From Candidatus Woesearchaeota archaeon (GTDB taxonomy: Archaea > Nanobdellota > Nanobdellia > Woesearchaeales > GW2011-AR4): a stretch of DNA of 24,044 nt. This document shows, piece by piece, positions 4,387-24,043 of the stretch (its first letter is position 1; each line of letters begins with the position of its first letter). Both the position numbers and the translations under genes were made by a program. The notes beneath the pieces were generated by a model, which did not search any database, was not told the origin of the DNA, and saw only the letters and a list, made by a program, of their open reading frames with translations. The stretch is from positions 1 to 24,044 of the forward strand of contig JACOZN010000020.1 in the NCBI GenBank assembly GCA_016181305.1, read 5' to 3'.

Positions 4387-4395
4387 ATAAAAACG

Positions 4396-4403
4396 TTTAT
4401 ATA
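4396..4403 (+). promoter_or_regulatory. TATA box TTTATATA (probable leaderless transcript)
   Basis: Lies 23-30 nt upstream of ATG 4426. Confidence 0.6.
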
Positions 4404-4425
4404 CTTCTGTTTTAATTAAGCCAAC

Positions 4426-4695: not shown

Positions 4696-4714
4696 ACAAA
4701 CAGCAACCCAAATA

Positions 4715-4722
4715 TTTATATA
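4715..4722 (+). promoter_or_regulatory. TATA box TTTATATA
   Basis: Lies 23-30 nt upstream of GTG 4745, the same spacing as the 4396 box. Confidence 0.55.
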
Positions 4723-4744
4723 TCTGGTTCTTAAGAGTTTATTT

Positions 4745-4888
4745 GTGGTTAAAAAGCGATTTAACAAAAGGGGAGAAGAGGAAAGTTCAGAGTTTTCATT
4801 TATTATTACAGTTCTGCTGATTATAATCCTCATAGGTATCTTAATTTATATTATAACAGGGATAAAAAATGCATTTACGCCGAAATAA
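4745..4888 (+). CDS. 47-aa micro-pilin-like peptide
   Basis: GTG start: MVKKRFNKRG|EEESSEFSFIITVLLIIILIGILIYIITGIKNAFTPK, essentially a class III leader plus one hydrophobic helix. The TATA spacing supports this start. Confidence 0.65.
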   Translation: MVKKRFNKRGEEESSEFSFIITVLLIIILIGILIYIITGIKNAFTPK

Positions 4889-6038
4889 AAAGTCTTTGAC
4901 TGAATCTAAAATTGTAGGAATCATTCTTATGACTGCGGCATTTTTTCTTATTATTTCAATCTGGGATTCATTGAAGGGCAATTTGGAGGCAAAAACAACA
5001 GAACAGATATGCAAACTTAGCGTGGTTGCAAGGGAAAAATCTTACACAGAATTTTATGATCCAGTAAGCGGCAAATTAAAAATCGGAAGTGCCGCATCGC
5101 CATTAGCTTGCAGGACAACTGACAAATATATTCCAGAAGACAAAGATGCAACAAAAGAAGATATTCAAAAGGAGATGGCAGGGCTTATGGCTAAATGCTG
5201 GAACCAATTTGGTGAAGGATTAATACAAGATGTTTTTAAGCAAGGCGACTTTGTCACAAAAAATTGTTTTGTATGCTATACTTTAAGCATGAGAGAAACT
5301 TCAAAGTTCAAAGGTGAGATAAAAGCTGACGATTTGCAACAGTATATGTTTGATACTCCTTATAAGGTACCTCCTAAAGCTGACTTTTGTAAAGTGAATG
5401 GTGGTGTTTGCATAAACTCTGAGAATCTGGACGATTGCAAAGCCCAGATTCAGGCAGATCCAAGCTACGTATTGATTGATAAAAAGAGTGACGCGTGCAA
5501 AAAAGACGGCAAAAAGGCTTGCTGCTACACAGAATACGGATGCTGGAACCAAGGCGGAAAATGCAGCGGCTCAAATCCCGACATGAATGAGTATGCAGAA
5601 TACAATAGCAATGGCTGGGAATGCCCCCCTAAACTAAAATGTTATACCAAAAAAGAAGATTACTATTCCTATGGTGATTACATACAAAGGTTTGGAGGGT
5701 CTGGAAATGCACTCATATTGGCAGACATAATGCCAGGAGAGACTTATGCAATAAGCTTTGGCAGTCCAACAGGACAATGCGGTTGGTGCACAACGCTTGG
5801 ACTAGCTGCAGGTACAGCTGTCGGCGTGGTTGCAGGAATATACACAGGTGGCTTGGGATGGGCTGTTTTATTTGGTGGAGGAGCATACACTATTACAAAA
5901 GGAGGCTCTGAGAAAATTGTTGTTGAGAACATAGGAAAATTTTTTGAAAGAGATCTAAACACAGTCTATCTAACAACTCTAAACCAAATACAGTCAGGGA
6001 ATTACTGCAGTATTGTCAAGGATATAAGGGAAACATAA
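4869..6038 (+). CDS. Large Cys-rich prepilin-like protein with a Gly-rich hydrophobic segment, 389 aa
   Basis: MHLRRNKKS|LTESKIVGIILMTAAFFLIISIW. Two C-x3-GG-x-C motifs (CKVNGGVC, CWNQGGKC). Segment TTLGLAAGTAVGVVAGIYTGGLGWAVLFGGGAY at 5790-5888. Confidence 0.8.
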   Translation: MHLRRNKKSLTESKIVGIILMTAAFFLIISIWDSLKGNLEAKTTEQICKLSVVAREKSYTEFYDPVSGKLKIGSAASPLACRTTDKYIPEDKDATKEDIQKEMAGLMAKCWNQFGEGLIQDVFKQGDFVTKNCFVCYTLSMRETSKFKGEIKADDLQQYMFDTPYKVPPKADFCKVNGGVCINSENLDDCKAQIQADPSYVLIDKKSDACKKDGKKACCYTEYGCWNQGGKCSGSNPDMNEYAEYNSNGWECPPKLKCYTKKEDYYSYGDYIQRFGGSGNALILADIMPGETYAISFGSPTGQCGWCTTLGLAAGTAVGVVAGIYTGGLGWAVLFGGGAYTITKGGSEKIVVENIGKFFERDLNTVYLTTLNQIQSGNYCSIVKDIRET

Positions 6039-6039
6039 A

Positions 6040-6207
6040 ATGGGAATAATGAAAAACAAGAAAGCAGGAGTAGGAGAAGCCACTGGCGTAACAGCAGGAA
6101 GAATTATTATGTGGATTCTTCTGGGTGCACTTTTAATATGGGCGCTTTTTTGGTATAGTAACTTTGGAACATATCTAATTAAACTAGGAAAATCATATTT
6201 AAAATGA
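6040..6207 (+). CDS. 55-aa micro-pilin-like peptide (not in the ORF track)
   Basis: Translated by hand: MGIMKNKKA|GVGEATGVTAGRIIMWILLGALLIWALFWYSNFGTYLIKLGKSYLK*. It fills the 6039-6203 gap exactly, starts 1 nt after the previous stop, and its TGA overlaps ATG 6204. Confidence 0.75.
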   Translation: MGIMKNKKAGVGEATGVTAGRIIMWILLGALLIWALFWYSNFGTYLIKLGKSYLK

Positions 6208-7397
6208 CAAAAAGAGGGGCTGTAAGCTCAATTATAACCCTTGCAATACTTCTAATACTCTTGGCTGTGCTTTTTGCAGCATTTTATGAATCACTGCTGC
6301 CAAGCGTTGCGAATGCAGCAGAGCGCTTTGCAGACAAAACTTTAAGCAGGTTTAAAAGGGAAAAATTCCAGAATGTTGAAATAGTGGCAGATAAATCTGT
6401 TGACGAAACATATGAAAACATATTGAGTGTTTTAAGAACAACCAATAAAGGCCCTTGCATAACAACCCGTAAGGCTTTTCCAAGGGACTTCAAAGATTTT
6501 AAAATTACCCTATCCCAAACGGAACAGGGAATTTTTGTCATACTAAAAAATAAACAGGAACGCGTTATCAAAAGCAATACAATAAGCGGCAAAATACCTT
6601 GTGTTGTTGGTGAGGGAGAAGCTGCCAAGAATTTTTATAATAATTTTTTAAAAGTTTCGCGCTGCACATCCAACTGCTTAGGCGATTACAGCGCAGCAAA
6701 CATAGAATTTAATAGCGCAGACTCCATCATAGTGAATGGGCAAAAAAGAAACCTTGATGATGGCAATCTAGTTTATGTAACAGAAAATGGGAATGTCTGC
6801 TTTTTTCCTACCCATAATAGCGGAGTGTCTATAATAAGGCCATGGGAAATATATACAAAATATGGTTGTGACGCGGAAACAGGAAGTTTAGATGACGATT
6901 GCATTGAGCAGGTAAAAAGAAAAATACCTCAATGCAAGAATGAAGAATGGGAAAAAATACTTGAAGATTACAACAAAAATAAGTGTAAAGTTGACAAATA
7001 CACTTGCAAGGTTGAGAGTCTTGGCTGCCAGTGCTTCTCGGCAGGACTTCTCCAAAGCCAGCAGAAGCCTGAAATATGTGATGAGACAAAACCATTTTGC
7101 TATGATGGTGAGTATGGCTGCAATGACAAAGGTCCGGATTTGAAAGGCTATTCAGAAGTCTGCAAAAAAACCAATAAAAATTTCGAATTAGCCCAAAAAT
7201 GCCAAGTAGATGAAAACTGCCTAGTCAAAAATGCCCCGTGCAGTTGTCATGACGCAGATACCAAATTAAGAGGAAAATTGCCTTATGTATGCCTTGAGGG
7301 AAATTATTGCTACAATGAGCAGATAGGTTGTAAAAAAGACATTGACCCCAGTCAACCTTTATATGTTGATTATTGCCAAAAAAGCAATAAGAATTAA
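6204..7397 (+). CDS. Large prepilin-like protein with two C-terminal 8-Cys repeats, 397 aa
   Basis: MTKRG|AVSSIITLAILLILLAVLFAAFY. Tandem Cys modules start at 6984 and 7200. Confidence 0.8.
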   Translation: MTKRGAVSSIITLAILLILLAVLFAAFYESLLPSVANAAERFADKTLSRFKREKFQNVEIVADKSVDETYENILSVLRTTNKGPCITTRKAFPRDFKDFKITLSQTEQGIFVILKNKQERVIKSNTISGKIPCVVGEGEAAKNFYNNFLKVSRCTSNCLGDYSAANIEFNSADSIIVNGQKRNLDDGNLVYVTENGNVCFFPTHNSGVSIIRPWEIYTKYGCDAETGSLDDDCIEQVKRKIPQCKNEEWEKILEDYNKNKCKVDKYTCKVESLGCQCFSAGLLQSQQKPEICDETKPFCYDGEYGCNDKGPDLKGYSEVCKKTNKNFELAQKCQVDENCLVKNAPCSCHDADTKLRGKLPYVCLEGNYCYNEQIGCKKDIDPSQPLYVDYCQKSNKN

Positions 7398-7420
7398 TAT
7401 AATTATTGAGAGGTATTAAA

Positions 7421-7729
7421 ATGAAAAACAAAAAATCATTGGCATTGCCAACAGAGTTAATTATCACCTTTGTTATTTTAGGGCTAGTGCTTCTCGTGAT
7501 AGTAGGTGGGGGTATAAGGGGTATTCTTCTTCCACAACTTGCCAAAGCAGGCGAAAAATCAGAATATGCAACGCAGGATTGTGATGAAGATGATGTTGTA
7601 GGAGTAAGTGATCCTTGCCCTTGCGTAAATGCAGTCAAACAAAAGTCTGAAAAAGGGCAAACCTGCCCACCTCCAGATAATAAAGCAACAACAAACTGCC
7701 CAGCCTTGTGCAAAAGCAAACAAAAATGA
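7421..7729 (+). CDS. Small prepilin-like protein with a TSP3-like motif, 102 aa
   Basis: Start re-called to ATG 7421 (SD GAGAGGT at 7408-7414): MKNKKS|LALPTELIITFVILGLVLLVIVGGG, followed by QDCDEDDVVGVSDPCPC. Confidence 0.75.
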   Translation: MKNKKSLALPTELIITFVILGLVLLVIVGGGIRGILLPQLAKAGEKSEYATQDCDEDDVVGVSDPCPCVNAVKQKSEKGQTCPPPDNKATTNCPALCKSKQK

Positions 7730-8376
7730 AAAAGGCAGACATAGTGCTTGGCATCTTATTCTGGACAATAGTCGGATTGATGATTTTCGTGCCAACTGCG
7801 CTATTTGCCAGCAAATTATTTAATTTAAGCAGCAAAGGGCTTGAATCTTCCAACAAGCTTGCAGAGATAATTGCATCGCTCAAGGATGGGGATCAGTTAA
7901 GCAGCCCGGTTTACATGGAGCAAAAATCATTTATTGTAGGATTTGCAAAAAACAGCAATAGGTTTGAAAATCATAGGTTCAGATATTCAGGGGTACAGCC
8001 TACAGATGTTGTGGTAGTTTTTGACAAGCCTGAGAAATGTGCAGGCAAATCATGCTTATGCTTTTGCAATACCATGGATTTAAACCAAAAGCAACAGCCA
8101 ATTTTAATATTATGCAATAAAGAGCCAATATGCACACCTTTTAACAACATTGATTTTCTGCCTGAGAAAATAATCAGAAAAGATGAAAACGGAAAGACAA
8201 GAGTTCTTTTCAAAGGCGGGTTTATGTTTATCAGGGGTTTTGAGATTGAGGCGCTCAACCCAAGCCAGGCTGCAACCCTTACAGCATATGTTGAAAGATA
8301 CAAAGATATAGTTGATGTTTGCGCAGAGCGCCCATGCATCACAAGCGAGATAAAACAGAGAATAGACTCAGGATAA
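7726..8376 (+). CDS. Prepilin-like protein, 216 aa
   Basis: Start re-called to ATG 7726 (ATGA overlap): MKKA|DIVLGILFWTIVGLMIFVP. Confidence 0.75.
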   Translation: MKKADIVLGILFWTIVGLMIFVPTALFASKLFNLSSKGLESSNKLAEIIASLKDGDQLSSPVYMEQKSFIVGFAKNSNRFENHRFRYSGVQPTDVVVVFDKPEKCAGKSCLCFCNTMDLNQKQQPILILCNKEPICTPFNNIDFLPEKIIRKDENGKTRVLFKGGFMFIRGFEIEALNPSQAATLTAYVERYKDIVDVCAERPCITSEIKQRIDSG

Positions 8377-8420
8377 TAATTTCCAAAAGAGATTTAAATC
8401 TATAATATTCTTTATCCAAT

Positions 8421-8828
8421 ATGAAAAAGAGAGGGGACACAACAGCCTTTTGGTTTTTTGTAGAGACAATAGTGGCAATTGTTATAGTCTTTATGATTGT
8501 CGATGTTTCTGTGGCTCGCGCAGAGGGCAAAATCTACGAGAAGCTGAACATTGCCAAGGACATTGCAATGCAGATAAATACATTGTCAGGCATTTCAGGA
8601 GATGCATACATAGTAAACAAAAACCTACATGGTTATTCTTTGCACTTTTTTGATAATAGGATAGAAGTTTTTGAAAACAGCTTTGAGCAATCCAAAGGCA
8701 TCTACTATTTTGTAAAGATAGGTGATACAAAACTTGACTTAAGGCTGGACAAACCAAAACAGGTTGTGGTGGCAAAAATAAACAATGAAATAGCGGTTTC
8801 AGAGGATATTCCAAGCGCAATCAAATGA
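8421..8828 (+). CDS. Prepilin-like protein, 135 aa
   Basis: MKKRG|DTTAFWFFVETIVAIVIVFMIV. TATA-like TTTAAAT at 8393-8399. Confidence 0.8.
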   Translation: MKKRGDTTAFWFFVETIVAIVIVFMIVDVSVARAEGKIYEKLNIAKDIAMQINTLSGISGDAYIVNKNLHGYSLHFFDNRIEVFENSFEQSKGIYYFVKIGDTKLDLRLDKPKQVVVAKINNEIAVSEDIPSAIK

Positions 8829-9292
8829 ACTCCAGCAAAAAAGGCGACATATTGGGGAGGAAAATGGTATTTTATGTCATAGCCATATTTGTGATTGTTG
8901 CAGCTTTTTTTGTTGTCACCCCTGCTATCGCCTCTGACAAATCCAAAATAAGCGAGTTGCCTGAGGGGCTTGAAAATTATTTTCTGATACAAAGATTCCT
9001 CAACGCCCCATCATGCTTTGCTCTTCAGGACAGGGACACAGGCAGAACTTTTCCCATGACAATAGACATAGAAAAATTCAATGAGGCAAATCTCAACAAG
9101 TGCTACAACGCCCAGGATACAAGCGTGAAGGCTTACAGGCTTACGCTCAAATACGGGAACGTTGAAAAATCACTAAGCACAAAAAACTGGCAGGGCTTCT
9201 TCAGAAAAGCTGAAACAAAGAGAGTTTTTGCATATGACAACGGCAATGTGCAAAAAGCCGAACTGATTATAGAAACCCAAAATGCAAAATAA
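8825..9292 (+). CDS. Prepilin-like protein, 155 aa
   Basis: MNSSKKG|DILGRKMVFYVIAIFVIVAAFFVV. ATGA overlap. Confidence 0.8.
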   Translation: MNSSKKGDILGRKMVFYVIAIFVIVAAFFVVTPAIASDKSKISELPEGLENYFLIQRFLNAPSCFALQDRDTGRTFPMTIDIEKFNEANLNKCYNAQDTSVKAYRLTLKYGNVEKSLSTKNWQGFFRKAETKRVFAYDNGNVQKAELIIETQNAK

Positions 9293-9782
9293 GAAATCGC
9301 AAATTGAGGACTTGCTGTCTTTTTTGGCTGCAATAGTAATTATAGTATTTGTGGTTTTTTTCTTTCCATCAAGAAGTATAGCCGGAACAAAAGCTGTGCA
9401 GGAAAAAATAAACCTTCAAATGATAAGCAAGGATTCCGAGCAGTTACTGATTAGTTACCTCAGGACTCCATTAAACAATGACGTTGATGTAGCAGAAGCA
9501 GTTAATACTTATTTTGTCAGTAATGATGAAAATTTGCTGAATCAGATAAAAACTCTTGCTCATGAATTCTTTTCAAAGAGTTACTTAGAAACAGACAGCT
9601 CTTCATGGTCGTTGGAGATAAGATATCCCGGGAAAAGTTCGCTCATAATTGAGCCGGAAAAAGCAAGGACAAATTACATTTTAAGAAAAGAAATTTCTGT
9701 TGTAACTATCCCAACACAATTTTTTGATAAGCAAATAGAACTTAAGATGTTTTTAGTCCAAACAAAATATGTTCCAAAATGA
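9282..9782 (+). CDS. Prepilin-like protein, 166 aa
   Basis: MQNKKS|QIEDLLSFLAAIVIIVFVVFFF. Confidence 0.8.
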   Translation: MQNKKSQIEDLLSFLAAIVIIVFVVFFFPSRSIAGTKAVQEKINLQMISKDSEQLLISYLRTPLNNDVDVAEAVNTYFVSNDENLLNQIKTLAHEFFSKSYLETDSSSWSLEIRYPGKSSLIIEPEKARTNYILRKEISVVTIPTQFFDKQIELKMFLVQTKYVPK

Positions 9783-10927
9783 AGCCAAGAAAATCGCAAA
9801 TGCTGCTTTGGGGTGTAAGTGTGGGAATTATAGCTGCAATCATACTCTCCCTATTCTCCAATTTAACTAAAAAGGATTTTGATGCAATTGGAGCATCATC
9901 CCTAATGCTTGTTGGAGCGTCAAATGAGGCAGAGAAAACATTACTCTACATAGATCAATCAGCAAAATATTCCTTGCAACAAGCTGTGTACGAATTGAGC
10001 AAAAGCGGGGGAATTCCAGATTACGTTACTGTTGATGAGATATTCTCAGAAACATTAGTCTCAACAAGTGCACAATGCAGCAAGTTTTTCGGCTATTCCC
10101 TATGGTATGATAAGACAAAAGATTCTGAAGAGGCAATATCATGCTTTGATGCAAGCCAGTCAACCAGCAACCTTCAGTATTTGTTTAACAAAAATCTGAA
10201 TCAATACTTATCGGCTTATCCGCATAACATACCGCAAGACAATTACGAGTATGAGGTAAGGGACAAATTAGAGATTATCGGAAAAGCCGCCAAGCCATTG
10301 AGGTTTGACATTTTAAAGGACGAATCAAAAAAGGCTGTCAAGGAAGCAACTGAAGCCAAGATAGAAACTCCAAAAGGATTGGTGGACTTCAGGGATTTTA
10401 CCGACTCTAGTTTTTGTGCAAAAGGTGTAATTTGCATGTTAACGGAGGATGCATATGAACTGCTGGTTAAGGCTGATGCCTTGGCAAAGCAAAAATTCAG
10501 GGAAAGAAACATAAGAGCAGAATGCTTAAGCAATGACGAGCCATGCCTTCAGATTAACTCAGCATACAGGGACATTAAAAAGCAGATCTATCTTTGGGAG
10601 GTTGCATATAAAAATGTGCCTCTTGAACAGAGAAGGAAAAAAGTATGCTACCCTTACGGCAATGATGTTGAGCAAAGATGCCCGCATCTTACGGGAAACG
10701 CAGTTGATGTTGTTTTCAAGGGAAAGACGACAAAAACGATGAATGGTGATGACTGGAGGTTATTGCATACAATAATGACTGGTGTAAAAAATCAAAATGG
10801 AGAAACAGGATGGGTAAGGTACGGCAATGAGAAGGACCCAAGCATAGGCGAGCCGTGGCATTTTGAATGCTGCGGGACAGACAGGTATGCAAAGGCAAAA
10901 GCGCAGGGGGTGACTGCAATAGCCTAA
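9779..10927 (+). CDS. Prepilin-like protein fused to a C-terminal M15 (VanY/D-Ala-D-Ala carboxypeptidase-like) Zn peptidase
   Basis: N-terminus MKPRKS|QMLLWGVSVGIIAAIILSLF. C-terminal domain (~10547-10867) carries INSAYR-x4-Q, CPHLTGNAVD (variant of S-x-H-x2-G-x-A-x-D) and EPWHFE (E-x2-H). Confidence 0.8.
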   Translation: MKPRKSQMLLWGVSVGIIAAIILSLFSNLTKKDFDAIGASSLMLVGASNEAEKTLLYIDQSAKYSLQQAVYELSKSGGIPDYVTVDEIFSETLVSTSAQCSKFFGYSLWYDKTKDSEEAISCFDASQSTSNLQYLFNKNLNQYLSAYPHNIPQDNYEYEVRDKLEIIGKAAKPLRFDILKDESKKAVKEATEAKIETPKGLVDFRDFTDSSFCAKGVICMLTEDAYELLVKADALAKQKFRERNIRAECLSNDEPCLQINSAYRDIKKQIYLWEVAYKNVPLEQRRKKVCYPYGNDVEQRCPHLTGNAVDVVFKGKTTKTMNGDDWRLLHTIMTGVKNQNGETGWVRYGNEKDPSIGEPWHFECCGTDRYAKAKAQGVTAIA

Positions 10928-10928
10928 A

Positions 10929-11909
10929 ATGGAAGCGAAAGACTTTATTTTGCTGATGATGCTGCCACTAATATTAGTTGGTATAGTAATCTACACAGAT
11001 AAAAATCCTCCAGTAACTGGCGCAGTCACGGCTAAGCAAACAGAAAGCAATGTTATAGGGACTTATTCCATAAACCCTTCTTTCAAGGCAAAGATTGATT
11101 ATGATTTAAGTGATTATAATAAAATAAAAGAGCAGCTTGATTTTATAATTGTATGCAAACAAAATGACGGAGATATAGAATCATGTATGCAACAGGCACA
11201 GAACGATGAACAATTTAAAGATCATAAATTTGAATGGGTTTTAAACTGTGATAAAGAAGCCAAAAAAGTCCAAGGCGCGGAAAAAGTTCTATACGATTTT
11301 GCTGAATTTTTCCAGAACTGCATTGATTCAGAAGACAATAATTGCTTATGTATTAAGGACGATTTTAGGTTATCAAAAGAAAAAATAAATGAATATGGGT
11401 TGTCAAACAAAAAATATGAAATTGTATTCAAAGACAAACCGTCACTTAGACAAATAGAGGCAAGTCTCTCAAAAATAAATGATAAATCAGCAGATTATTA
11501 CTTATCACAAAGCGTTGATACAAAAGGCATATCAATTTGGACACCAAACCTATACATAATAGCCTATACCAACAATAAATTGTTTCTTAATCTAATTTTT
11601 ATGGAAATAACAGGAATATTTCGTAGTCTAGGACCTATGAATGAGATAGTGCTTTACAAGAACTACAACAGCACAAGCCAAATAATGTCAATTGATTTTG
11701 TAAGGCAGGAAGGAGAAAATCTTGTTTATCCAACTCTTGGTAAGATTACCAAAAAACCAGATGATTTACATCCGTGCCAAATAAAATCCAAGAACATTTA
11801 CAAATTTTGCGTCACTAAAAAAGACACAAAAGTAACGGTTTATGATAATATTGACAGGCAGGTTAAGGAAAGAAATGTCACGATAAAGTTTGCTGCTTAC
11901 ATACCTTAA
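10929..11909 (+). CDS. N-terminally membrane-anchored hypothetical protein, 326 aa
   Basis: FILLMMLPLILVGIVIYT TM helix followed by PPVTGAV. No class III basic motif. Starts 1 nt after the peptidase gene stop. Confidence 0.7.
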   Translation: MEAKDFILLMMLPLILVGIVIYTDKNPPVTGAVTAKQTESNVIGTYSINPSFKAKIDYDLSDYNKIKEQLDFIIVCKQNDGDIESCMQQAQNDEQFKDHKFEWVLNCDKEAKKVQGAEKVLYDFAEFFQNCIDSEDNNCLCIKDDFRLSKEKINEYGLSNKKYEIVFKDKPSLRQIEASLSKINDKSADYYLSQSVDTKGISIWTPNLYIIAYTNNKLFLNLIFMEITGIFRSLGPMNEIVLYKNYNSTSQIMSIDFVRQEGENLVYPTLGKITKKPDDLHPCQIKSKNIYKFCVTKKDTKVTVYDNIDRQVKERNVTIKFAAYIP

Positions 11910-11939
11910 AGATATTTTATAAAAAAATTTAATCAAAAA

Positions 11940-12072
11940 ACGAGAGACCTGTTGCTCGCATTGCAGGTATGCGCTTTCTAAGCATTAATGGGTGCTCCTC
12001 AAGGACTGCTTTCAGGCAAAGAAGCGCAAGCGGATTACTTTCCTTGCTTTTGCATCACAAAGTCGCTCTCGT
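11940..12072. ncRNA. Unidentified multi-stem structured element (candidate ncRNA or MITE-like element)
   Basis: Terminal inverted repeat ACGAGAG (11940-11946)/CTCTCGT (12066-12072). Internal stems ACCTG/CAGGT, GCGCTT/AAGCGC, AGCA/TGCT and GCAAG/CTTGC. Flanks are AT-rich, with TTTATAAA at ~11916-11923 and a T-run after the 3' end. Confidence 0.4.
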
Positions 12073-14321: not shown

Positions 14322-14618
14322 ATGGAAAATAGAAATGTGCCTGAAAAGAAATTCAGCACAGGTGTTATAACTGCCACAGTCTGGCAAAACCAGGGAAAAG
14401 GCAGAAACGGGGAAATAGTGGGATACAGAACTGTTTCTTTGCAGAGGAGATATAAAGACAAAAACGGCGTATGGCAAAGCGCTAACTCTTTCAGGGTCAA
14501 TGACCTGCCAAGGGCATCATTGGTGCTGCAGAAAGCCTACGAATACTTGGTTCTCAGGGAGCAAGAAGCTGCCTCTGACTACTCTGTAGACGAGGACATC
14601 ATAGAAGAGGTTATTTAG
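14322..14618 (+). CDS. Small putative ssDNA-binding (PC4/Whirly-like) protein, 98 aa
   Basis: PEKKF-x-TG-x-ITATVWQN...YRTVSLQRRYKDKNGVWQSANSFRVNDLP with an acidic C-terminal tail. SD GGGTGA at 14312-14317. The fold assignment is from memory of similar proteins. Confidence 0.6.
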   Translation: MENRNVPEKKFSTGVITATVWQNQGKGRNGEIVGYRTVSLQRRYKDKNGVWQSANSFRVNDLPRASLVLQKAYEYLVLREQEAASDYSVDEDIIEEVI

Positions 14619-14684: not shown

Positions 14685-15575
14685 TTGAGCCAAACAACAG
14701 AAGGAAAAAGACATGACCTGATGAGCATAGCAGTCGCAACTCCGGCAGAATTGGTTGATGCAACCGGCATGAGCGATGCAGTCGCAAAGAAGATGATTGC
14801 AGTCGCAAGGTCTTCATTGGAAATGGGCTTTGAGTCAGGAGAAGAACTTCTTAAAAGAAGGGAAAAAGTCCAAAGAATAAAAACAGGAAGCAAAAACTTT
14901 GATGCATTGCTCGGCGGCGGACTTGAAACAGGCGCGATTGTGGAATGCTTTGGAGAATTCGGCTCAGGCAAAACCCAGATTGGGCATGTTTTGGCAGTAA
15001 ACAGCCAGTCAATTGAAAAAGATGCAGTTGCAGTCTACATCGACACAGAAAACACTTTTCGCCCAGAGAGAATAATCCAATTGGCAAAAGGCGCTGGCTT
15101 GGATGAAGAGCAGGTGCTGAAAAACATCAAAGTGGCAAGAGCATACAACTCTGACCACCAGATGCTGCTGGCAGAAAAAATAGAGGACTTAATCAAGAAG
15201 CAGGGCTTGAACGTCAAGCTTGTTGTGATTGACTCATTGACAGCTCATTTCAGGGCAGAGTTCATCGGCAGAGGGACATTGGCTGACAGGCAGCAGAAGC
15301 TTAACAAGCACATGCACATTTTGCTTAAATTGGCTGACACGCACAATCTTTGCGTTTATGTAACCAATCAAGTCATGGCAAAGCCTGACATGTTCTTCGG
15401 CGACCCGACACAGGCAATTGGCGGGCATATTGTTGCGCATGCGTCAACCTTCAGGGTTTACCTCAGAAAAGGCAAGAAAGGCACAAGAGTTGCAAAACTC
15501 ATTGATTCCCCCAATATGCCAGAAGGCGAGGCAGGATTCTATGTTGACGAGACTGGAGTAAAAGACGTAGAATAA
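14685..15575 (+). CDS. radA: DNA repair and recombination protein RadA (N-terminus apparently disrupted)
   Basis: Polymerisation motif MGF, Walker A GEFGSGKT, Walker B LVVIDS, YVTNQV and [10 protein letters not shown]. The SD-led ATG at 14663 is in a different frame and stops at 14714-14716. Confidence 0.9.
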
Positions 15576-15589: not shown

Positions 15590-16408
15590 TTAATTTTTTT
15601 TCTTTAAAACAAAATTAAAATATTCCCTATCCCCGCTTCTAAAGGACTCATATGTTTCTGTCCCCTTTAATCCGGCAAAATCCGAGAAGGACTTATGAAG
15701 TATCCTCGGCACTTTTTGGATAAGCTTTAGCTTGCGGTTGTTGTCCAATTCCAAAGCCCTTAAGACATTTTGAGTTATTCTTTCCTCCTTGATTAATTCA
15801 AAGCCCGAATGCACTAGCTGTTTACGCAGAGTGCTGATTTCATCCCTCTTGCGAAAGTCAGCAAACAAGAAATGCCCATCTGGCCGAATTACCCTGAAAA
15901 CTTCCCTCAAAAATTGATCCATATTTCCGTAGCAATGTGAAGACTCGACGTTGACCACAGCATCAAATTTATTGTCTTCAAAAAGAAGGGACTCAGCATC
16001 TCCAACATAAAATGAAAGCCCTTTAACAGAATAAAATTTTTTACAGAATTCAATTGATTTTCTGGAAAAATCTAAACCCATCATAGAGCTTGGTTTGAAG
16101 TATCGCATGATGTAAGATGAACCGCCTCCGCGCCCACAGCCTACCTCAAGCAAGTCTTTGTCTTTCAGGTTAATGGCGCTTGCAACATGGTGATAAAGCT
16201 GAATGCAATAGCGGTTCTTTTCATCAATTTTTCTAAGTTTTGCCTTTTCTGATTCAGAAGCATACCCATAATTCATAAAAATGACCTGTGCTCCTTTGTC
16301 CAATCCGGTAACATACTGATAAAATACTCTTCAGACTGAACGCTTTAACCCCGGCGATACGCCACAAACTAAATCAAAAAACTTGTGTAATGCAGCTTTT
16401 GTTGTCAT
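15590..16408 (-). pseudogene. Class I SAM-dependent methyltransferase with an in-frame TGA at codon 26
   Basis: ATG 16408 has a TATA box (16438-16447) and AGGGG upstream. Reading: MTTKAALHKFFDLVCGVSPGLKRSV*RVFYQYVTGLDKGAQVIFMNYGY. TGA is at 16333-16331. SAM motif LLEVGCGRGGG and VVNVESSHCY follow. The remainder from TTG 16303 is an intact ORF. Confidence 0.65.
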
Positions 16409-16500
16409 GTTCCCCTACTCTATTTTTAAGTCATACCTATATAAAAATATGCCCTAAATTGTTTTTCACCAAAACCTTTTTAACTTAATATTTAATAGTC

Positions 16501-17145
16501 ATGGATATGGCATACCCTATTGCAAGATACATTATAACGCCGATTTACAGGCTCTGGATAAGGAAAATAGGCGGATTGCAGAACATACCGAAGGGCAAGC
16601 CTTTCATAATAGCAGCAAACCATACAAGCTACTTTGATGCATTGCTCCTGCCTTCAATAATCGGCCCAAGGGTGAACAAGAGCGTGCACGCTTTAGCCAA
16701 CAGCTTTTACTGGAAGCCACTCCTGACAAGGTTCTTCCTTAACTTATGGGAGGCATTGCCTGTCTATGTCGGCAATGAGAAGGGCGCAAAAAGGAAAAAC
16801 CAGCAGTCATTGGAAATGGCATTAAAATATATCCAAAAAAATGAGCTGCTGATGGTTTTTCCGGAAGGCACAAGAAGCCCTGATGGAAAATTAAAAAAAG
16901 CATACACGGGCATTGCAAGGCTGGCATTAAATTCAAAAGCCCCTGTGCTGCCATGCGGAATCATAGGCTCGAACAGGGTGCTTCCAAAAGGAGCATCCTT
17001 TCCAAGATTCGCAAGGTGCGAGGTTAAGATCGGAAAATTGATGTATTTTAACCACAAAAGCAAAAATGAAAAAACATACGAGAGAGTAACAATAAAAATT
17101 ATGAAAGAAATAGCAAAGCTGATCAACCAGAAATACAGCTACTAA
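16501..17145 (+). CDS. plsC: 1-acyl-sn-glycerol-3-phosphate acyltransferase (PlsC/LPAAT family), copy 1
   Basis: Catalytic NH-x4-D (ANHTSYFD) and FPEGTRS blocks. Confidence 0.9.
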   Translation: MDMAYPIARYIITPIYRLWIRKIGGLQNIPKGKPFIIAANHTSYFDALLLPSIIGPRVNKSVHALANSFYWKPLLTRFFLNLWEALPVYVGNEKGAKRKNQQSLEMALKYIQKNELLMVFPEGTRSPDGKLKKAYTGIARLALNSKAPVLPCGIIGSNRVLPKGASFPRFARCEVKIGKLMYFNHKSKNEKTYERVTIKIMKEIAKLINQKYSY

Positions 17146-17146
17146 G

Positions 17147-17779
17147 ATGGTATACCTAATCCCAAAGCTTACGATAATACCGATTGTAAAGCTCTATGTA
17201 AAAGAAGCCAAAGGCCTTGAAAACCTGCCAAAAAAAGGAGCGTTCATAGCAGCTGCGAACCATGCAAGCTATATCGACCATATGATAATAGCGTCTTTTT
17301 TGGTATCCCATCTCGACAGAAAAGTGCATTTCCTTGCAAAAAAGGAGCATTTTGACAATGTTTTCAAGAAGGCATGGCACAATTACGTCGGAGCAATCCC
17401 CCTAGACAGGGCAAAAGGCGGCAGAGAGGCATTGAAATGGGCAATAAATGCTTTAAAGGGCGGGAATATAATAGCAATACATCCCGAAGGCACAAGAAGC
17501 CTGACTGGAAATCTGCAGAGGGCAAAAACAGGAGTTGCAAGGCTTGCACTGAAGGCAAAAGCGCCCGTCGTACCAATAGGGTTAATAGGGACTTTTGATA
17601 TACTGCCGAAGGGAAAATACCTACCAAGGTTCAAAAGGGCTGTAATGGGCATCGGCAAGCCAATTTCTTTTGAGAAATACTACGGCAAAAAGATTAATAA
17701 AAAGATGCTCAGGGAGATAACAACAGGGATAATGAAGGAGATTGCTAAGCTGTCAAAACAAAAATATAATTTCAAATGA
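17147..17779 (+). CDS. plsC: 1-acyl-sn-glycerol-3-phosphate acyltransferase (PlsC/LPAAT family), copy 2
   Basis: ANHASYID, FLAKKE and HPEGTRS blocks. Confidence 0.9.
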   Translation: MVYLIPKLTIIPIVKLYVKEAKGLENLPKKGAFIAAANHASYIDHMIIASFLVSHLDRKVHFLAKKEHFDNVFKKAWHNYVGAIPLDRAKGGREALKWAINALKGGNIIAIHPEGTRSLTGNLQRAKTGVARLALKAKAPVVPIGLIGTFDILPKGKYLPRFKRAVMGIGKPISFEKYYGKKINKKMLREITTGIMKEIAKLSKQKYNFK

Positions 17780-18753
17780 AAAAAATCTCGGTCATAGGGG
17801 CAGGCTCGTGGGGAACAACTTTGGCAGTTCTGCTTGGGGAAAAAGGCTTTGACGTAAAGCTGTGGGCAAGGAGGGAAGAGCTTGCAAACGAGATTGAAAG
17901 CAAAAAGGAAAACATGCAGTATCTACCCGGAATAAAAATACCGGGCAATGTCATTGCAGACCATTCTTTAAAAAATGTCCTTGAAAGCTCTGAAATGGCG
18001 GTAGTTGCCATCCCGTCGGAGTTTTTTAGAAAAATATTGAAGGATATAAAGCCCTTTTTTAGCAATCAGGTCATTGTCAGCGTCACGAAGGGAATAGAGC
18101 ACCATACCAACAAGAGAATGTCTCAAGTCATTGAAGACGAGCTTGGCAAGGCGAAAATAGCCGTGCTTTCCGGCCCAAACCACGCAGAAGAAGTCAGTGC
18201 CAGGATGCCGACTGCAAGCGTTGTGGCGAGCAGCGACATGAAGACAGCAAAGCATGCTGCAGAGTGCCTTGCAGCCCCTTACTTCAAGCTTTACTGCCTG
18301 AATGATATTGCAGGAGTTGAAATCTGCGGAGCCCTGAAGAACATACCTGCAATAGCCACAGGAGTTTGCGACGGGTTTGGGCTTGGGGACAACGCACGAG
18401 CGTCAATAATAACGCTTGGCCTGATGGAGATGAACAATTTTGGAAGGCACTTTGGCGCAAAAAGAGGGACAGTATACGGGCTTGCAGGAGTCGGAGACCT
18501 GATTGCCACGTGCACAAGCAGGCACTCAAGAAACAGGTTTGTGGGCGAGCAGCTTGCAAAAGGCAAAACAATGGACGAGATAAAAAAAGAGATGCATGGC
18601 ATGATTGCAGAAGGGATTCCGACAACAAAGGCCGTTTACGAGTACAGCAAAAAGCACGGCATAGAAATGCCATTGGCGCAGCAGGCTTATGAAGTCCTTT
18701 TCGAGAAAAAAGATATAAAGCAGGCAGTTAAGGATTTGCTGAGGCTGGTGTGA
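17776..18753 (+). CDS. gpsA: NAD(P)H-dependent glycerol-3-phosphate dehydrogenase
   Basis: IGAGSWGT Rossmann motif, LSGPNHAEEV, GALKN and GLAGVGDLIATCTSRHSRN. ATGA overlap with plsC. Confidence 0.93.
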   Translation: MKKISVIGAGSWGTTLAVLLGEKGFDVKLWARREELANEIESKKENMQYLPGIKIPGNVIADHSLKNVLESSEMAVVAIPSEFFRKILKDIKPFFSNQVIVSVTKGIEHHTNKRMSQVIEDELGKAKIAVLSGPNHAEEVSARMPTASVVASSDMKTAKHAAECLAAPYFKLYCLNDIAGVEICGALKNIPAIATGVCDGFGLGDNARASIITLGLMEMNNFGRHFGAKRGTVYGLAGVGDLIATCTSRHSRNRFVGEQLAKGKTMDEIKKEMHGMIAEGIPTTKAVYEYSKKHGIEMPLAQQAYEVLFEKKDIKQAVKDLLRLV

Positions 18754-19353
18754 TTACTCCTCTGTAAAGTCCTCAAGCTTTTCCTTCAGCTCCTCGCCTT
18801 CTTTCAGCTTCCCTTTCAATTTCAGGAACTCCTTTGTAAGAATATAGAAGAACAGTCCAAGGCTTTTCTTGCCCTTGTTGTTGCAAGGCACTACCAAGTC
18901 TATAAAGTTTGACATATTGTTTGTGTCGCACAGCGCAATCACCGGGATTCCAACCCTGACACCGTCGAGGACCGCGTTCCTGTCAGGCCACGCGTCAACA
19001 ATAAGCATAATCTTCGCTTCTATGTACCGCTCAAGATTCGGGTTTGTCAGAATTCCGGGAGGGTACCTTCCTGCAAAAACCCTTATGCTTGTAAGCTTGC
19101 CGAAAAGCTCGACTGCCTTCCAGCCGTTCTCGCGCCTGCTCACGATAAGTATGTCTTCCGGGCTGTATTGCGCAAGAAAAGCAGCAGCCACCCTTATTCT
19201 TTCGTCAATCTTCTGCAAATTCAATACGGATAATCCGTCAGGCCTTGTCTTGTATATGAACTGCTCCATTGCCTTTGTCCTGAACTTCGTGCCTATGTGT
19301 ATCCCTGACTTCAGATACACGTCCCTCGGAACCAAAAAGCTCTCGTCAGCCAT
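18754..19353 (-). CDS. rps2: 30S ribosomal protein S2 (uS2, archaeal type)
   Basis: YLKSGIHIGTK, GRYPPGILTN, IPVIALCDTNN and IDLVVPCNNKGKKS. Confidence 0.95.
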   Translation of the reverse strand: MADESFLVPRDVYLKSGIHIGTKFRTKAMEQFIYKTRPDGLSVLNLQKIDERIRVAAAFLAQYSPEDILIVSRRENGWKAVELFGKLTSIRVFAGRYPPGILTNPNLERYIEAKIMLIVDAWPDRNAVLDGVRVGIPVIALCDTNNMSNFIDLVVPCNNKGKKSLGLFFYILTKEFLKLKGKLKEGEELKEKLEDFTEE

Positions 19354-20557: not shown

Positions 20558-20863
20558 TTAAAATCTTAAGCCGCCGTCAACCCTTATAACTTCGCCTGTT
20601 ATGTAGCCTGCCTTGTCAGATGCAAGAAAAGCAACCAGGCTTGCTACATCCTGCGGAGTGCCGCTTCTGCCAAGGGGTATTGAGCCTGCCAGCTCCTTTT
20701 TCCTTGCCTGTGGAATGGATTTGATAATGTCAGTCTCTATAAGCCCAGGAGCTACTGCATTTACAGTAATGCCGTGCTTCCCAAGCTCCTTTGCCAACGA
20801 CTTTGTAAAGCCTATTATTCCGGCTTTTGAAGCTGCATAATTAGTCTGCCCGAAATTGACATT
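20558..20863 (-). pseudogene. fabG: Out-of-frame C-terminal part of the FabG-like SDR
   Basis: The frame of ORF 20558-20797 extends upstream as [40 protein letters not shown]. The catalytic YxxxK (20839-20825) is in a different frame from the N-terminal half. Confidence 0.8.
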
Positions 20864-22227
20864 AATGCGCTCTTGGTTACATTATAAATACCCTTAAGGT
20901 TAGTTGTTATTACACTGTCCCATTCCCCCCTAGCCAGGTTTTGCAGTGTTTTGTCCATTATTATTCCTGCATTATTGACCAGTATGTCCAGCTGCCCAAA
21001 CTCCTTCTTTATAGTATCAAACATTGCCTTTACCTCGTTAGGGTTGCCAACATCGGCCTTTATTGATATGCACCTGGAATATTTTTTTGCCCCATCAACA
21101 GCTTCAGAGGCTTCTTTCTCATTCCTGTTGTAGTTGACAATTACATTCGCACCTTTTTTTGCAAGCTCGATCGCTATAGCCCTGCCTATGCCTCTTGAAG
21201 CTCCTGTCACCAATGCAGTTTTTCCATTCAACCCCAGCCGGTTTTCAGCAAGGGAATGTTTTGGCTTTTTTGCGGTAACATAAAGGAAGCTGATGATGAA
21301 TCCCTCAGCATCAGCCAGCGGATTTTTGCTCCTTAGCTCGTCAAACAGCCTGTTTGAAGCCAGTGTAATCAGCGTGTCCCTGTCTGTCTCCTCTTTTTGC
21401 GAGGGCTCGTTGCCGCCTATCTCAGGCAATATGCCTGCCTGCAGCCTTCTTACCCTCAGAAAATTAAGCCAGTCGCTGTATTTCACTTTTATCAGCTTGT
21501 AATGGTGCCCAAGGTACTCGAAGCCCGCACCCTTCAGTGCTTTGAGATAGATGCCAATCGGCCTGGGGTCCGGGAACACAAATTTTCGCTGCGGCTCTGT
21601 CGCCTTTATGCGCGCGTCAATGTCTTTCCTGTAGGCTGCAAACTTGGAATATTTGCGCACAATATCCAGCGCTATGTCATGCACCCTTTTTACCGTGTCG
21701 TCAACAAGCAGTGCGCCCTCAGGCCCCTCGTTTGGTATGTTGCCGCTCAAGAACGTAAAAGTGCCGCTTTCCTTCAGGGCTTCTGAAATTCCCCTGAATG
21801 TATCCTCAATGTCCGGAATAAGGTGGACAGTATGCGCTGAAACAACATGATTGACTATGTTTCTGCCGACGCAATCGCCAAGCTTTGAATAAGCCTCATT
21901 TTTTTTCTCAAGAAGAAAGCACTTGACATTAGGGTTGTCGCTGAATACCTCATAGGCTTTTCCCAGCCATGCGGCAGAGTTGTCAACAAGCCACAGCTCT
22001 ACATTAACTTTCAGGCGTTCCAGCAGGCGAATGGCTGAAACGCCTGTGCCCGCCCCGAAATCAACGACAATGTCGCCGTTTTTTACCTTAGGGACGATAA
22101 GGCCTGCCAGCTCATCCAGTGCAGCTATGTAATACTCAGCCTTGGATACTGCCTCGTGGTATGCTGTAGCACCTCTTGATGTCGGCCTGTCAGGCTTCCA
22201 GCAGCTGCGCCCGCCTTCTTCACTCAT
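20815..22227 (-). CDS. Class I methyltransferase fused to the N-terminal part of a FabG-like SDR (frameshifted after TKSAL)
   Basis: [11 protein letters not shown] motif in the N-terminal ~320 aa, then [27 protein letters not shown] and TTNLKG. After KSAL the sequence is no longer SDR-like. Confidence 0.8.
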
Positions 22228-23357
22228 ATGATCACACCCCTGCTTTGCAGTTCCATGATTTTTGATTTGCTATAACCCATTTTTTTTAGCAAGCCTTTTG
22301 CATTTTCTCCAAGCTTTGGATGCCTTACGCAGGCAATCTTTTTATGCGATGAAAACTCAACAGGCATCTTTACAAGGGATATCCCGTCAACCTCTTCCAG
22401 CATTTTCCTGCCCTTGAAATGGCTGTCTTTGGCTAAACTCCCCATCTTTTTTACAGGCTCGCAGCAAAAATCATGCCTGCGGCTTATTTCCATCCATTCC
22501 TTTACCTTTTTGCTCTTGAAAACAGCCTGCATTTCAATGGCAATTTCTCTGCTGCTGTCAAATTGCCTGCCAATAAGCTCCTCTCTTCCGATTGCGCTGC
22601 AAAAATTCACCCAGAATTTTTTTTCTATCGCGCCAAGGCTTACAAACTCGCCATCCTTTGTTTTATATATGCTGTAGCAGGGCTTGCTGCCCGACAGTAC
22701 AGTATCAATGTTTTCCGAGACAGACCTGTATGCCATATGGATTCCTATGACAAAGAGTGCCGTGTCAAGCACCGCAACATCTATATAGCAGCCCCTGCCG
22801 CTTTTTTGCCTCGAGAGCAAAGAAGCGACAATCGCAAATGCGGAAACAAGCGCGCTGCTTGTGTCAGGAACCTGCACGCCGGCAACAATCGGCTTTTGGA
22901 ACATTGCATCAAGCATCCCGCTTAGTGATGCATAATTCAGGTCATGCCCTGCCTTGTTTCTGTAAGCACCTTTCTGCCCATAGCCCGTTATTGAGCAGTA
23001 AACTATGCCCGGGTTTATTTTTTTGACAGCTTTGTACCCTATGCCAAGGGCATCCACTTTGCCGGGGCGGAACCCTTCAATAATGACATCCGCATCTTTT
23101 GCAAGAGCCATAAAAATTTTTTTCCCCTCATCAGCTTTCAGGTTCAATGAAATGCTTTTTTTGTTACGGTTAAGGGCAGCAAAATAAGGATTTTTGCCGT
23201 TCACGTTTTCAAAGTACCTCATTGGATCGCCGCTTGGGCTTTCAACCTTTATGACATCGGCACCGAGCTCTGCAAGAAGCAAAGAGCACATTGGCCCGGG
23301 CAAAAGATTTGACAAGTCCAAAACATTTATTCCTTTCAGCATTTCGCTCCCAACCAT
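22224..23357 (-). CDS. CaiB/BaiF family III CoA-transferase (alpha-methylacyl-CoA racemase-like)
   Basis: VLDLSNLLPGP, LGADVIKVE, EGFRPG and SITGYGQKG...GHDLNY. The start is ATG 23357 or ATG 23342. ATGA overlap with the downstream gene. Confidence 0.88.
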   Translation of the reverse strand: MVGSEMLKGINVLDLSNLLPGPMCSLLLAELGADVIKVESPSGDPMRYFENVNGKNPYFAALNRNKKSISLNLKADEGKKIFMALAKDADVIIEGFRPGKVDALGIGYKAVKKINPGIVYCSITGYGQKGAYRNKAGHDLNYASLSGMLDAMFQKPIVAGVQVPDTSSALVSAFAIVASLLSRQKSGRGCYIDVAVLDTALFVIGIHMAYRSVSENIDTVLSGSKPCYSIYKTKDGEFVSLGAIEKKFWVNFCSAIGREELIGRQFDSSREIAIEMQAVFKSKKVKEWMEISRRHDFCCEPVKKMGSLAKDSHFKGRKMLEEVDGISLVKMPVEFSSHKKIACVRHPKLGENAKGLLKKMGYSKSKIMELQSRGVII

Positions 23358-24043
23358 CAATTAAGGTTCCTCAATATGTGCATTGTTGCAATGCTCCCGG
23401 CTCCCCCGATGTTCAGGGCAAGCCCGTAGCTTGGGTTTTTAACCTGCCTTTTTCCGCACTCGTTCTTCATCTGCTTTGCAATCTCGTAGATTTGGGCAAG
23501 CCCTGTAGGGCTTATCGGATGGCCCTTTGCCTTCAGCCCGCCGCTTGTGTTCACGGGTATTTTTCCGTCAAGCTTTGTAATGCCTTCCCTGATAAGCCTC
23601 GGGCCTTCGCCGGCACTGCAAAACCCCAAATCCTCGTATGAAATTAATTCCAATGGCGTGAAAGCATCGTGCAGCTCCGCAACCCTTATATCGGACGGGG
23701 AAATTCCAGCCTCCTTGTATGCGATTTCCGCCGCTTTTCTCGTGGCCCAGAAAGAAGCCATATCGTCTCTTTCAAAAGGGCTTAAGTAATCGTTTTCTTC
23801 CGCAGAGCCAACAACCTCAATGCCAGACTCGTCTTTGGAGAGTATCAAAGCGGCAGCCCCATTGCATGAAATGCTGCAGTCAAATACCCTAAGCGGAGAC
23901 GCAACAACAGGGGAATTTTTTATATCCTCCAGAGAAACCTTCTTTTTGTAAAACCTCGCCTTGGGGTTGAGGTAGGCGTTTTCATGGTTCTTTAGAGCCA
24001 CCAATGCAAAGTCATCTGTTGTTGCGCCGTACTTCAGCATGTA
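23357..24043 (-). CDS. Thiolase (acetyl-CoA acyltransferase, archaeal/SCP2-like type), 5'-truncated by the window
   Basis: KNH-x-N, ELHDAF, VNTSGGLKAKGHPISPTG and NIGG. The frame stays open to the window edge. Confidence 0.88.
   Translation of the reverse strand, partial: YMLKYGATTDDFALVALKNHENAYLNPKARFYKKKVSLEDIKNSPVVASPLRVFDCSISCNGAAALILSKDESGIEVVGSAEENDYLSPFERDDMASFWATRKAAEIAYKEAGISPSDIRVAELHDAFTPLELISYEDLGFCSAGEGPRLIREGITKLDGKIPVNTSGGLKAKGHPISPTGLAQIYEIAKQMKNECGKRQVKNPSYGLALNIGGAGSIATMHILRNLN

Follow-up and report, generated by a model that had tools for sequence, protein, structure and literature searches.

The window analysed here, the whole 24,044-bp contig JACOZN010000020.1 of a Candidatus Woesearchaeota archaeon (assembly GCA_016181305.1), encodes two PlsC-family acyltransferases and the glycerol-3-phosphate dehydrogenase GpsA in a single operon, plsC1-plsC2-gpsA. 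We favour the reading, at a probability of roughly 0.55, that this operon assembles bacterial-type acyl lipids on sn-glycerol-3-phosphate (G3P) in a Woesearchaeales (DPANN) archaeon of small genome size, which has neither the archaeal lipid core nor hydrocarbon-chain synthesis of its own. The genome comprises 1.07 Mb in 22 contigs and is estimated to be 78% complete and 0.25% contaminated.

Together, plsC1, plsC2 and gpsA make up a translationally coupled unit. At base level, the stop codon of plsC1 and the start of plsC2 are separated by one nucleotide (TAA-g-ATG), plsC2 and gpsA overlap in ATGA, and the reverse-strand stop of the convergent rps2 gene, which encodes the ribosomal protein uS2, lies immediately after the TGA of gpsA. 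GpsA matches PF01210 (184.6 bits) and PF07479 (192.1 bits) in a Pfam search, with a GAGSWG dinucleotide-binding motif visible near the N-terminus of its translation. The recombinase RadA (NF003301), encoded upstream, supports an archaeal context of the locus. The original prediction, made from the letters alone, had described two PlsC-family acyltransferases with intact motifs, a 1-nt gap and an ATGA overlap coupling them to gpsA, and an abutting archaeal uS2 gene. All of this is borne out: the motifs read NHTSYFD in the first acyltransferase (C1), NHASYID in the second (C2) and PEGTRS in both, the open reading frames and junctions lie exactly as described, and uS2 passes TIGR01012, its stop adjoining that of gpsA at 18753/18754.

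This arrangement recurs in relatives. A search with GpsA in one genome per prokaryotic species yielded 33 loci with GpsA 56-96% identical, labelled Candidatus Woesearchaeota (15), Nanoarchaeota/Nanoarchaeia (4), 'uncultured Methanosarcinales' third-party assemblies (13) and 'Nomurabacteria' (1). When the window's proteins are mapped onto these loci, a common order emerges, hyp98-RadA-PlsC-PlsC-GpsA followed by convergent uS2-LigT-TRAM. The convergent uS2 gene adjoins gpsA in 33/33 loci, at least two PlsC genes precede gpsA in 30/33, the remaining three being interrupted by contig ends, and RadA lies upstream of plsC1 in 28/33. Given its recurrence over 33 loci, the plsC-plsC-gpsA/uS2 arrangement is far beyond chance.

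C1 and C2 are 39% identical (E 7e-51) and have a common C-terminal IMKEIAKL…QKY tail. The orthologs in the 33 loci separate cleanly into two groups of constant order, C1 in first place (31 sequences, counting the window's own) and C2 in second (33 sequences), and the two are best described as old paralogs with a consistent order. The Asn and His of the HX4D motif I are invariant in both ortholog alignments, the Pro-Glu-Gly of motif III (PEGxRS) is invariant and its Arg-Ser nearly so in both groups, and block IV is kept as VPVLP in C1 and VPVxPIG in C2. The groups differ in motif II. C2 carries the canonical GAIPLDR, with Asp and Arg at least 95% conserved among the 33 C2 sequences (D87 and R88 are invariant in one alignment), whereas the 31 C1 sequences have a non-canonical IPVYV with a six-residue Lys-rich insert and no Asp-Arg pair. 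Motif II is linked to acyl-acceptor binding in a review of GPAT and AGPAT enzymes (PMC4280512), and the difference argues for different acceptors of C1 and C2. The earlier proposal that the paralogs may split the sn-1 and sn-2 acylations gains indirect support from this clade-wide difference and from the mycobacterial enzyme PlsM described below (PMC10593935); we put a true split somewhat short of even odds.

Both proteins resemble a structurally characterized PlsC. C2 matches the T. maritima enzyme (5KYM) at E 4.8e-18, and the alignments of C1 and C2 start at residue 66-67 of the 5KYM chain. AlphaFold models of C1 and C2 (pLDDT 89.9 and 76.9, respectively) feature a single short N-terminal helix spanning residues 4-17. 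The top fold match of both models is 5KYM (TM-score 0.65 for C1 and 0.68 for C2), followed by plant and human glycerol-3-phosphate acyltransferases (GPATs; 1IUQ, 1K30, 8E4Y).

The pathway surrounding the operon was surveyed in 34 cluster-carrying genomes, that of the window and 33 relatives. All are metagenome bins, counts refer to matches over the model cut-off, and absences mean 'not found', their weight coming from repetition over the 34 genomes. On the side of the archaeal core, sn-glycerol-1-phosphate (G1P) dehydrogenase (G1PDH; NF002022) was found in 0/34, the best match reaching 52.7 bits against a cut-off of 413 and the best matches being AroB-like; geranylgeranylglyceryl phosphate synthase (GGGPS) was likewise found in 0/34 and UbiA in 5/34. 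This lineage lacks the archaeal G1P ether-lipid route altogether. The original prediction had set the bacterial-type genes against the G1P ether lipids that archaea normally build; the bacterial-type genes are indeed there, but the 'normal' route with which they were contrasted is itself absent from these genomes. Nor can the lineage make its own hydrocarbon chains: a KAS condensing enzyme occurs in 2/34 genomes and a polyprenyl synthase in 3/34, and the window's genome yielded no acyl carrier protein (ACP), HMG-CoA reductase or polyprenyl synthase. CarS-like proteins, by comparison, are present in 32/34 genomes and AMP-binding enzymes in 33/34. An AMP-binding form of about 505 aa was counted in 19/34 genomes from the match table, and the one copy scanned passes a long-chain-fatty-acid-CoA ligase subfamily model (497 bits, cut-off 476).

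Within the window's genome, 78% complete, none of egsA (the G1PDH gene), GGGPS and digeranylgeranylglyceryl phosphate synthase (DGGGPS) was found. The genome search for egsA, GGGPS and cdsA that had been suggested for this locus thus identified none of them. Two candidates were examined and rejected. An Fe-ADH_2 match on contig 15, considered as G1PDH, is AroB (TIGR01357, 388 bits) beside a DAHP synthase gene, and a CTP_transf_1 match on contig 21, considered as CdsA, reaches 19.9 bits, under the cut-off, and matches no Pfam family on rescan. The genome has just two PF01553 genes, both of about 210 aa, with no PlsB-like third gene. The earlier proposal of a route without PlsB or PlsX/Y therefore stands for PlsB in this genome and for PlsY, found in 0/34 genomes; PlsX was not searched.

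Candidate genes for the later steps, the attachment of head groups, are grouped on contig 19 of the same genome (L058:4570-8491). They encode CarS (NF003114, 150.8 bits, a marginal pass against a cut-off of 148; PF01864, 114.6 bits), a protein resembling SnoaL, a phosphatidylserine decarboxylase and two CDP-alcohol phosphatidyltransferases, which differ from each other and have two domains each. One of these transferases has a PgsA-type half (TIGR00560, 189 bits) and the other a PssA-type half; the tandem-domain form of these enzymes is unusual.

In the pathway that we favour, GpsA would convert dihydroxyacetone phosphate to G3P, a step strongly indicated by its family membership. Fatty acids would be scavenged from the surroundings or a host and activated; the acyl donor is most likely acyl-CoA, because no ACP or fatty-acid synthase was found and many relatives have an acyl-CoA ligase. 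Two short, probably peripheral PlsC paralogs would then put two acyl chains on G3P, giving lysophosphatidic acid (LPA) and then phosphatidic acid (PA). C2, with its canonical motifs, would be the likely LPA acyltransferase (LPAAT), and C1, with its altered acceptor motif II, a candidate for the other acylation. The CarS-type CTP transferase, encoded elsewhere in the genome, followed by the PgsA-type and PssA-type transferases and the phosphatidylserine decarboxylase, would add the head groups. CarS would have to accept a diacyl substrate, and this CDP activation is the weakest link of the scheme. A more far-reaching proposal is that an entire clade within the Woesearchaeales has replaced its ether lipids with diacyl-G3P phospholipids through a chimeric pathway, in which GpsA supplies G3P, the two short PlsC paralogs acylate G3P and LPA with acyl-CoA formed from scavenged fatty acids, an archaeal CarS has been repurposed as a CDP-diacylglycerol synthase, and PgsA, PssA and Psd follow. 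We consider this extension tentative and, in its entirety, unlikely.

Several observations weigh against assembly of acyl-G3P lipids by the operon. The motif II Arg, essential in human AGPAT1 (R149A is inactive; PMC4280512), is missing from C1, which may not bind a glycerophosphate acceptor. Both copies score under the TIGR00530 cut-off of 102.95 (C1 61.5 bits, C2 87.3 bits) and are, for this reason, family relatives rather than certified equivalogs. The fold search ranks the same structures in the same order for both copies and does not separate GPAT-like from LPAAT-like in either case. The window's genome, 78% complete, yielded an acetate-CoA ligase only and not the acyl-CoA ligase of about 505 aa. 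Nor did a bona fide CdsA turn up there, which leaves the CDP activation of a diacyl lipid a putative step. Purified CarS of A. fulgidus strongly prefers digeranylgeranylglyceryl phosphate (DGGGP) over PA and fails to complement E. coli cdsA, according to a review (PMC9385802), which also describes a membrane activity of M. thermoautotrophicus that is indifferent to ester or ether linkage and to G1P or G3P, with geranylgeranyl chains required. Finally, retention of CarS is not specific to the operon, because CarS is common in the order with or without the cluster: among 301 genomes evenly drawn from the order, that of the window included, it occurs in 20/24 with the cluster and 124/277 without, and CarS was set aside as a cluster-specific partner.

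A possible, though in our judgement doubtful, alternative to de novo synthesis is that the operon serves the re-acylation and remodelling of lysolipids. The cell would obtain (lyso)phospholipids from a host or a neighbouring organism, the two acyltransferases would re-acylate different lysolipid classes in the manner of a Lands cycle, and GpsA would mainly feed the PgsA-type head-group step rather than the lipid backbone. A lineage without chain synthesis is what a scavenger would be, and the PgsA-type enzyme described above does consume G3P. Forms of PF01553 of about 800 aa in other genomes of the order, and fusions of AMP-binding, carrier and acyltransferase domains among the relatives (P0146), are consistent with such a role, as is a published discussion inclined towards Woesearchaeia modifying bacterial lipids that they obtain from a host (PMC11868695); a VanY-like peptidase match in the window hints at bacterial contact. 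The tight clade-wide coupling of gpsA to the acyltransferases, however, is easier to explain if G3P is their substrate, and the window's genome, with only two PF01553 genes, showed no lysophospholipid transporter or Aas-type fusion. Re-acylation and de novo synthesis are not mutually exclusive.

It is also conceivable, but improbable, that only C2 is a glycerophosphate (LPA) acyltransferase and that C1 acylates another acceptor, such as a glycolipid, a lyso-aminolipid, or a mono- or diacylglycerol. In that case the operon would fall short of a full route to PA, and G3P would either receive its first acyl chain from an enzyme not yet recognised or not receive one at all. The change from PLDR to PVYV with the six-residue insert throughout the C1 ortholog group points in this direction, since AGPAT1 and PlsB depend on the motif II Arg to bind the acceptor and to be active (PMC4280512). 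Yet C1 retains HX4D, PEGxRS including the motif III Arg, and block IV, and its Lys-rich insert could supply positive charge; the R149K variant of AGPAT1 keeps much activity (PMC4280512). Members of PF01553 serve many acceptor types, and C1 has weak NCBIfam matches to ornithine-lipid acyltransferases (OlsF, 30.8 bits; OlsA-type, 23.4 bits), both far below the cut-offs, but genes for making ornithine lipids or glycolipids were not noticed next to it. Its constant position as the first gene of the gpsA operon speaks for participation in one common pathway.

An artefact, be it a chimeric contig or a contaminating bacterial one placed in an archaeal bin, might be suspected from the bacterial-type genes lying directly against archaeal ribosomal and recombination genes and from the one related locus filed under a bacterium of the candidate phyla radiation (CPR), but its probability is negligible given the same gene order in 33 independent species-level assemblies, the bridging of all three junctions in sequencing runs, the genome contamination estimate of 0.25%, and the archaeal RadA and uS2 genes on the CPR-labelled locus itself. 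The bridging evidence comes from four groundwater DNA runs of one study, each containing at least 95% of the words sampled from the stretch. Independently assembled contigs in 4/4 runs span the gpsA/rps2 junction and both intra-operon junctions with 0 mismatches, and one of the four runs is free of the flag that marks a possible assembly source. Among the sequencing runs found, no RNA run was listed as containing the stretch. The synteny and these contigs exclude the misassembly between gpsA and rps2 that the original prediction had named as a risk. The genome is genuinely archaeal, and the phospholipid genes at this locus are of bacterial type.

Two sets of labels among the related loci call for comment. 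The locus filed under Nomurabacteria, L041, has archaeal RadA and uS2 in the same synteny; because of these genes its bin label looks wrong, and the contig is probably mis-binned. The 13 'uncultured Methanosarcinales' loci (L014, L017-L019, L022, L023, L025, L027, L028, L030-L032, L042) belong to genomes of about 0.8-1.6 Mb. On genomes this small and with Woesearchaeal synteny, these labels are doubtful and look like mis-assignments.

Compared with known systems, C1 and C2 have the fold of the T. maritima PlsC and share HX4D, PEGTRS and block IV with it, although the Asp-Arg of motif II is kept in C2 only and missing in C1. Both are about 35 residues shorter at the N-terminus, and their models show one short helix instead of the two-helix motif of 5KYM, which reportedly anchors that enzyme in the membrane. 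The canonical bacterial PA pathway, in which PlsB or PlsX/PlsY precedes PlsC, differs in its first-step acyltransferase, PlsB or PlsY, as the census indicates. Another parallel is mycobacterial PlsM (Rv2182c/MSMEG_4248), a short PlsC homolog without predicted transmembrane segments that takes acyl-CoA as its donor and accepts G3P as well as 1-acyl-G3P (PMC10593935). Its HX4D motif at residues 41-46 lies at nearly the same position as H41 of C1 and H39 of C2. The partner of PlsM is the large PlsB-type PlsB2, whereas the partner here is a second short PlsC paralog, in an archaeal host; the likeness is drawn from the published description rather than from sequence comparison. By analogy, PlsM shows a precedent for a PlsC-type enzyme starting PA synthesis (PMC10593935).

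Eukaryotic GPAT and AGPAT enzymes, together with a cytosolic G3P dehydrogenase, offer a further comparison, in that one HX4D superfamily (PF01553) carries out both acylations with acyl-CoA. The GPATs of eukaryotes are far bigger, being either multi-domain proteins or integral to the membrane, and no specific relationship to C1 or C2 is implied. Aas-type salvage modules, which fuse an acyl-AMP ligase, a carrier and PlsC, belong to the same superfamily and to the same theme of scavenged fatty acids. The window's genome, in contrast, has no such fusion and instead has two stand-alone short acyltransferases coupled to G3P synthesis.

C2 has 714 homologs at E <= 1e-10 in a large protein collection; the best 120 of these are all C2 orthologs with at least 67% identity, and the named entries among them read '1-acyl-sn-glycerol-3-phosphate acyltransferase [Candidatus Woesearchaeota archaeon]' or Nanoarchaeota. 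In a library clustered at 50%, 153 representatives were found at E <= 1e-30. A FastTree phylogeny of 138 rows, drawn from 13/33 loci, 96 representatives of 185-260 aa and six split fusions, recovers C1 as a single clade (14/14 rows, support 94) and core C2 as another (14/16 rows, support 96), the two C2 outliers being the additional third genes of L025 and L044. A direct sister relationship of C1 and C2 is not recovered; numerous representatives of about 210 aa stand between them on weak branches, and of the 10 intervening clusters looked up, two carry organism names, both Woesearchaeota/Nanoarchaeota. The PlsC family thus seems, on this tree, to have radiated within the lineage. A tandem duplication of C1 and C2 within it is neither shown nor excluded, because the backbone between them is weak.

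Phylogeny of the PlsC copies had been proposed as a check, and it delivered the C1 and core C2 clades but not a bacterial donor, which could not be resolved with the best 120 homologs all C2 orthologs and the clustered library without taxonomy. Archaeal PlsC homologs look acquired from Bacteria (Coleman 2019, PMC6431249), and neighbours in a protein atlas are clusters of Chloroflexota and Bacillota, which serve as leads only. Some clusters contain a third PlsC gene (L025:3589-4257, L043:4599-5228, L044:1829-2464), and in L044 the first-position gene is C2-like, not C1-like.

The listed representatives include 35 long forms, eight with at least two acyltransferase domains, 11 with HAD fusions and four with TPR fusions; one of the eight, P0146, combines AMP-binding and carrier domains with two acyltransferase domains. 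A 'Rosetta-stone' link between C1 and C2 was considered and dropped, as no halves of split fusions pair as C1-C2 in the tree and these proteins are hence not C1-C2 fusions. Three of the six split fusions (P0126, P0233, P0172) have halves that group together, the pairing of P0172 being flagged as a meeting of long branches. Fusions of two acyltransferases support a division of labour only loosely.

Across the order, in the sample of 301 genomes, GpsA occurs in 79, PF01553 in 139 and CarS in 144. GGGPS passes the cut-off in 16, mostly as short C-terminal partial matches, with only three full-length. GpsA and PF01553 occur together in 54 genomes, GpsA only in 25, PF01553 only in 85 and neither in 137. 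PF01553 is thus found in 54/79 genomes with GpsA and 85/222 without it, a comparison that is not a clean test, as kin are not independent. A PlsC-PlsC-GpsA cluster on one contig is verifiable by coordinates in 24/301 genomes from 12 families. These tallies include genomes flagged as unpublished (G145, G154, G165, G216, G239, G241, G243, G278, G307), three of which (G165, G241, G243) are cluster carriers; without them, 21 genomes in the same 12 families remain. An anti-correlation of the cluster with GGGPS was rejected as meaningless, GGGPS being nearly absent from the whole order.

Two further features emerged from this sample. Family f119 (G152, G233, G292; completeness 97, 92 and 79%) has the tandem cluster and four PF01553 hits in each genome with CarS in 0/3, and may employ a different CDP-activating enzyme. 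Many genomes of the order have open frames of about 720-880 aa bearing PF01553 (e.g. G305:C74, G052:C3, G235:C44, G034:C14, G101:C53), which are possibly Aas-like ligase-carrier-acyltransferase fusions; none was seen in the window's genome.

The gene families themselves are already known from Woesearchaeota. GpsA has been reported there, together with the absence of G1PDH from DPANN (Yokobori 2016, PMC5059525), PlsC has been found in DPANN, MGII/III and Asgard bins (Coleman 2019, PMC6431249), and for some Woesearchaeota Castelle 2021 (PMC8204110) described a bacterial G3P dehydrogenase and genes of 'bacterial fatty acid synthesis'. It has also been suggested that Woesearchaeia produce or alter bacterial-like lipids of host origin (PMC11868695), and NCBI already annotates orthologs as '1-acyl-sn-glycerol-3-phosphate acyltransferase [Candidatus Woesearchaeota archaeon]'. 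Calling the locus unusual rather than unprecedented, as the original prediction did, agrees with these publications. In the searches made and the literature excerpts covered, neither plsC1-plsC2-gpsA as a fixed operon nor the split in motif II nor a clade-wide census was described. What is added here is the structure of the operon, the split between the paralogs and the picture of the pathway over the clade.

If membranes of ester-linked fatty-acyl G3P lipids are indeed formed, this lineage would be a natural archaeal exception to the lipid divide between archaea and bacteria. Debates about how early cells evolved, and about how an archaeal host could have gained bacterial-type membranes in eukaryogenesis, turn on that divide. 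The operon is a compact candidate for a PA route in which two small PlsC-type enzymes do without PlsB and PlsX/Y, with the limit given above for PlsX. The census also provides concrete targets in C1, C2 and a CarS retained without GGGPS.

The features of the locus are collected in Table 1. The intergenic region before plsC1 measures 197 nt, and the TATA-like stretch within it is, as read from the letters, a possible archaeal promoter element.

Table 1. Coordinates of the operon and its context markers in the 24,044-bp window
Feature	Position	Strand	Remarks
plsC1 (C1)	16501-17145	+	214 aa; PF01553 82.4 bits (cut-off 23)
plsC2 (C2)	17147-17779	+	210 aa; PF01553 92.8 bits (cut-off 23)
gpsA, NAD(P)H-dependent glycerol-3-phosphate dehydrogenase	17776-18753	+	325 aa; NF000942 409.6 bits (cut-off 257)
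rps2 (uS2, archaeal/eukaryotic type), context marker outside the operon	18754-19353	-	199 aa; TIGR01012 233.4 bits (cut-off 211.5)
radA, archaeal recombinase, conserved upstream neighbour, context marker	14685-15575	+	NF003301 431.9 bits
AT-rich TATA-like stretch	16438-16449	+	read from sequence; 52-63 nt 5' of the ATG at 16501

Upstream of the operon, an open reading frame of 98 aa without a Pfam family (14322-14618, forward strand) precedes radA and is found in this position in 25/33 related loci at 67-94% identity. A divergent methyltransferase gene (15590-16303, reverse strand) lies directly upstream of plsC1 and has the same position in only 4/33 loci (L021, L032, L036, L037). Its product resembles the fatty-acid O-methyltransferase Mtf2 and phthiotriol methyltransferase, with 232-244 bits, under their cut-offs.

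Downstream, the reverse strand of 20558-22227 holds a fusion gene of a methyltransferase and a FabG-like short-chain dehydrogenase/reductase (SDR), apparently frameshifted. Positions 20815-22227 encode the methyltransferase and the first ~122 SDR residues, and 20558-20797, in another frame, the SDR C-terminus (PF13561 positions 157-235). The match is unbroken in several relatives (query residues ~10-463; e.g. L020, L029, L033) and in two pieces in others. Together with a family III CoA-transferase (22224-23360) and a thiolase (23357-24040, cut at the contig end), the fusion gene occupies 20558-24040 on the reverse strand as a conserved convergent neighbourhood, the thiolase being present in most loci that are long enough and the CoA-transferase in six. 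This set could serve an acyl-CoA metabolism tied to the lipid operon. At the other end of the window, positions 1-12000 on the forward strand contain a long run of same-strand open reading frames nearly without Pfam matches, the exceptions being a weak bacterial TSP3 repeat (2-1552) and the VanY-like peptidase domain (9779-10927), which scores 24.7 bits, just under its cut-off.

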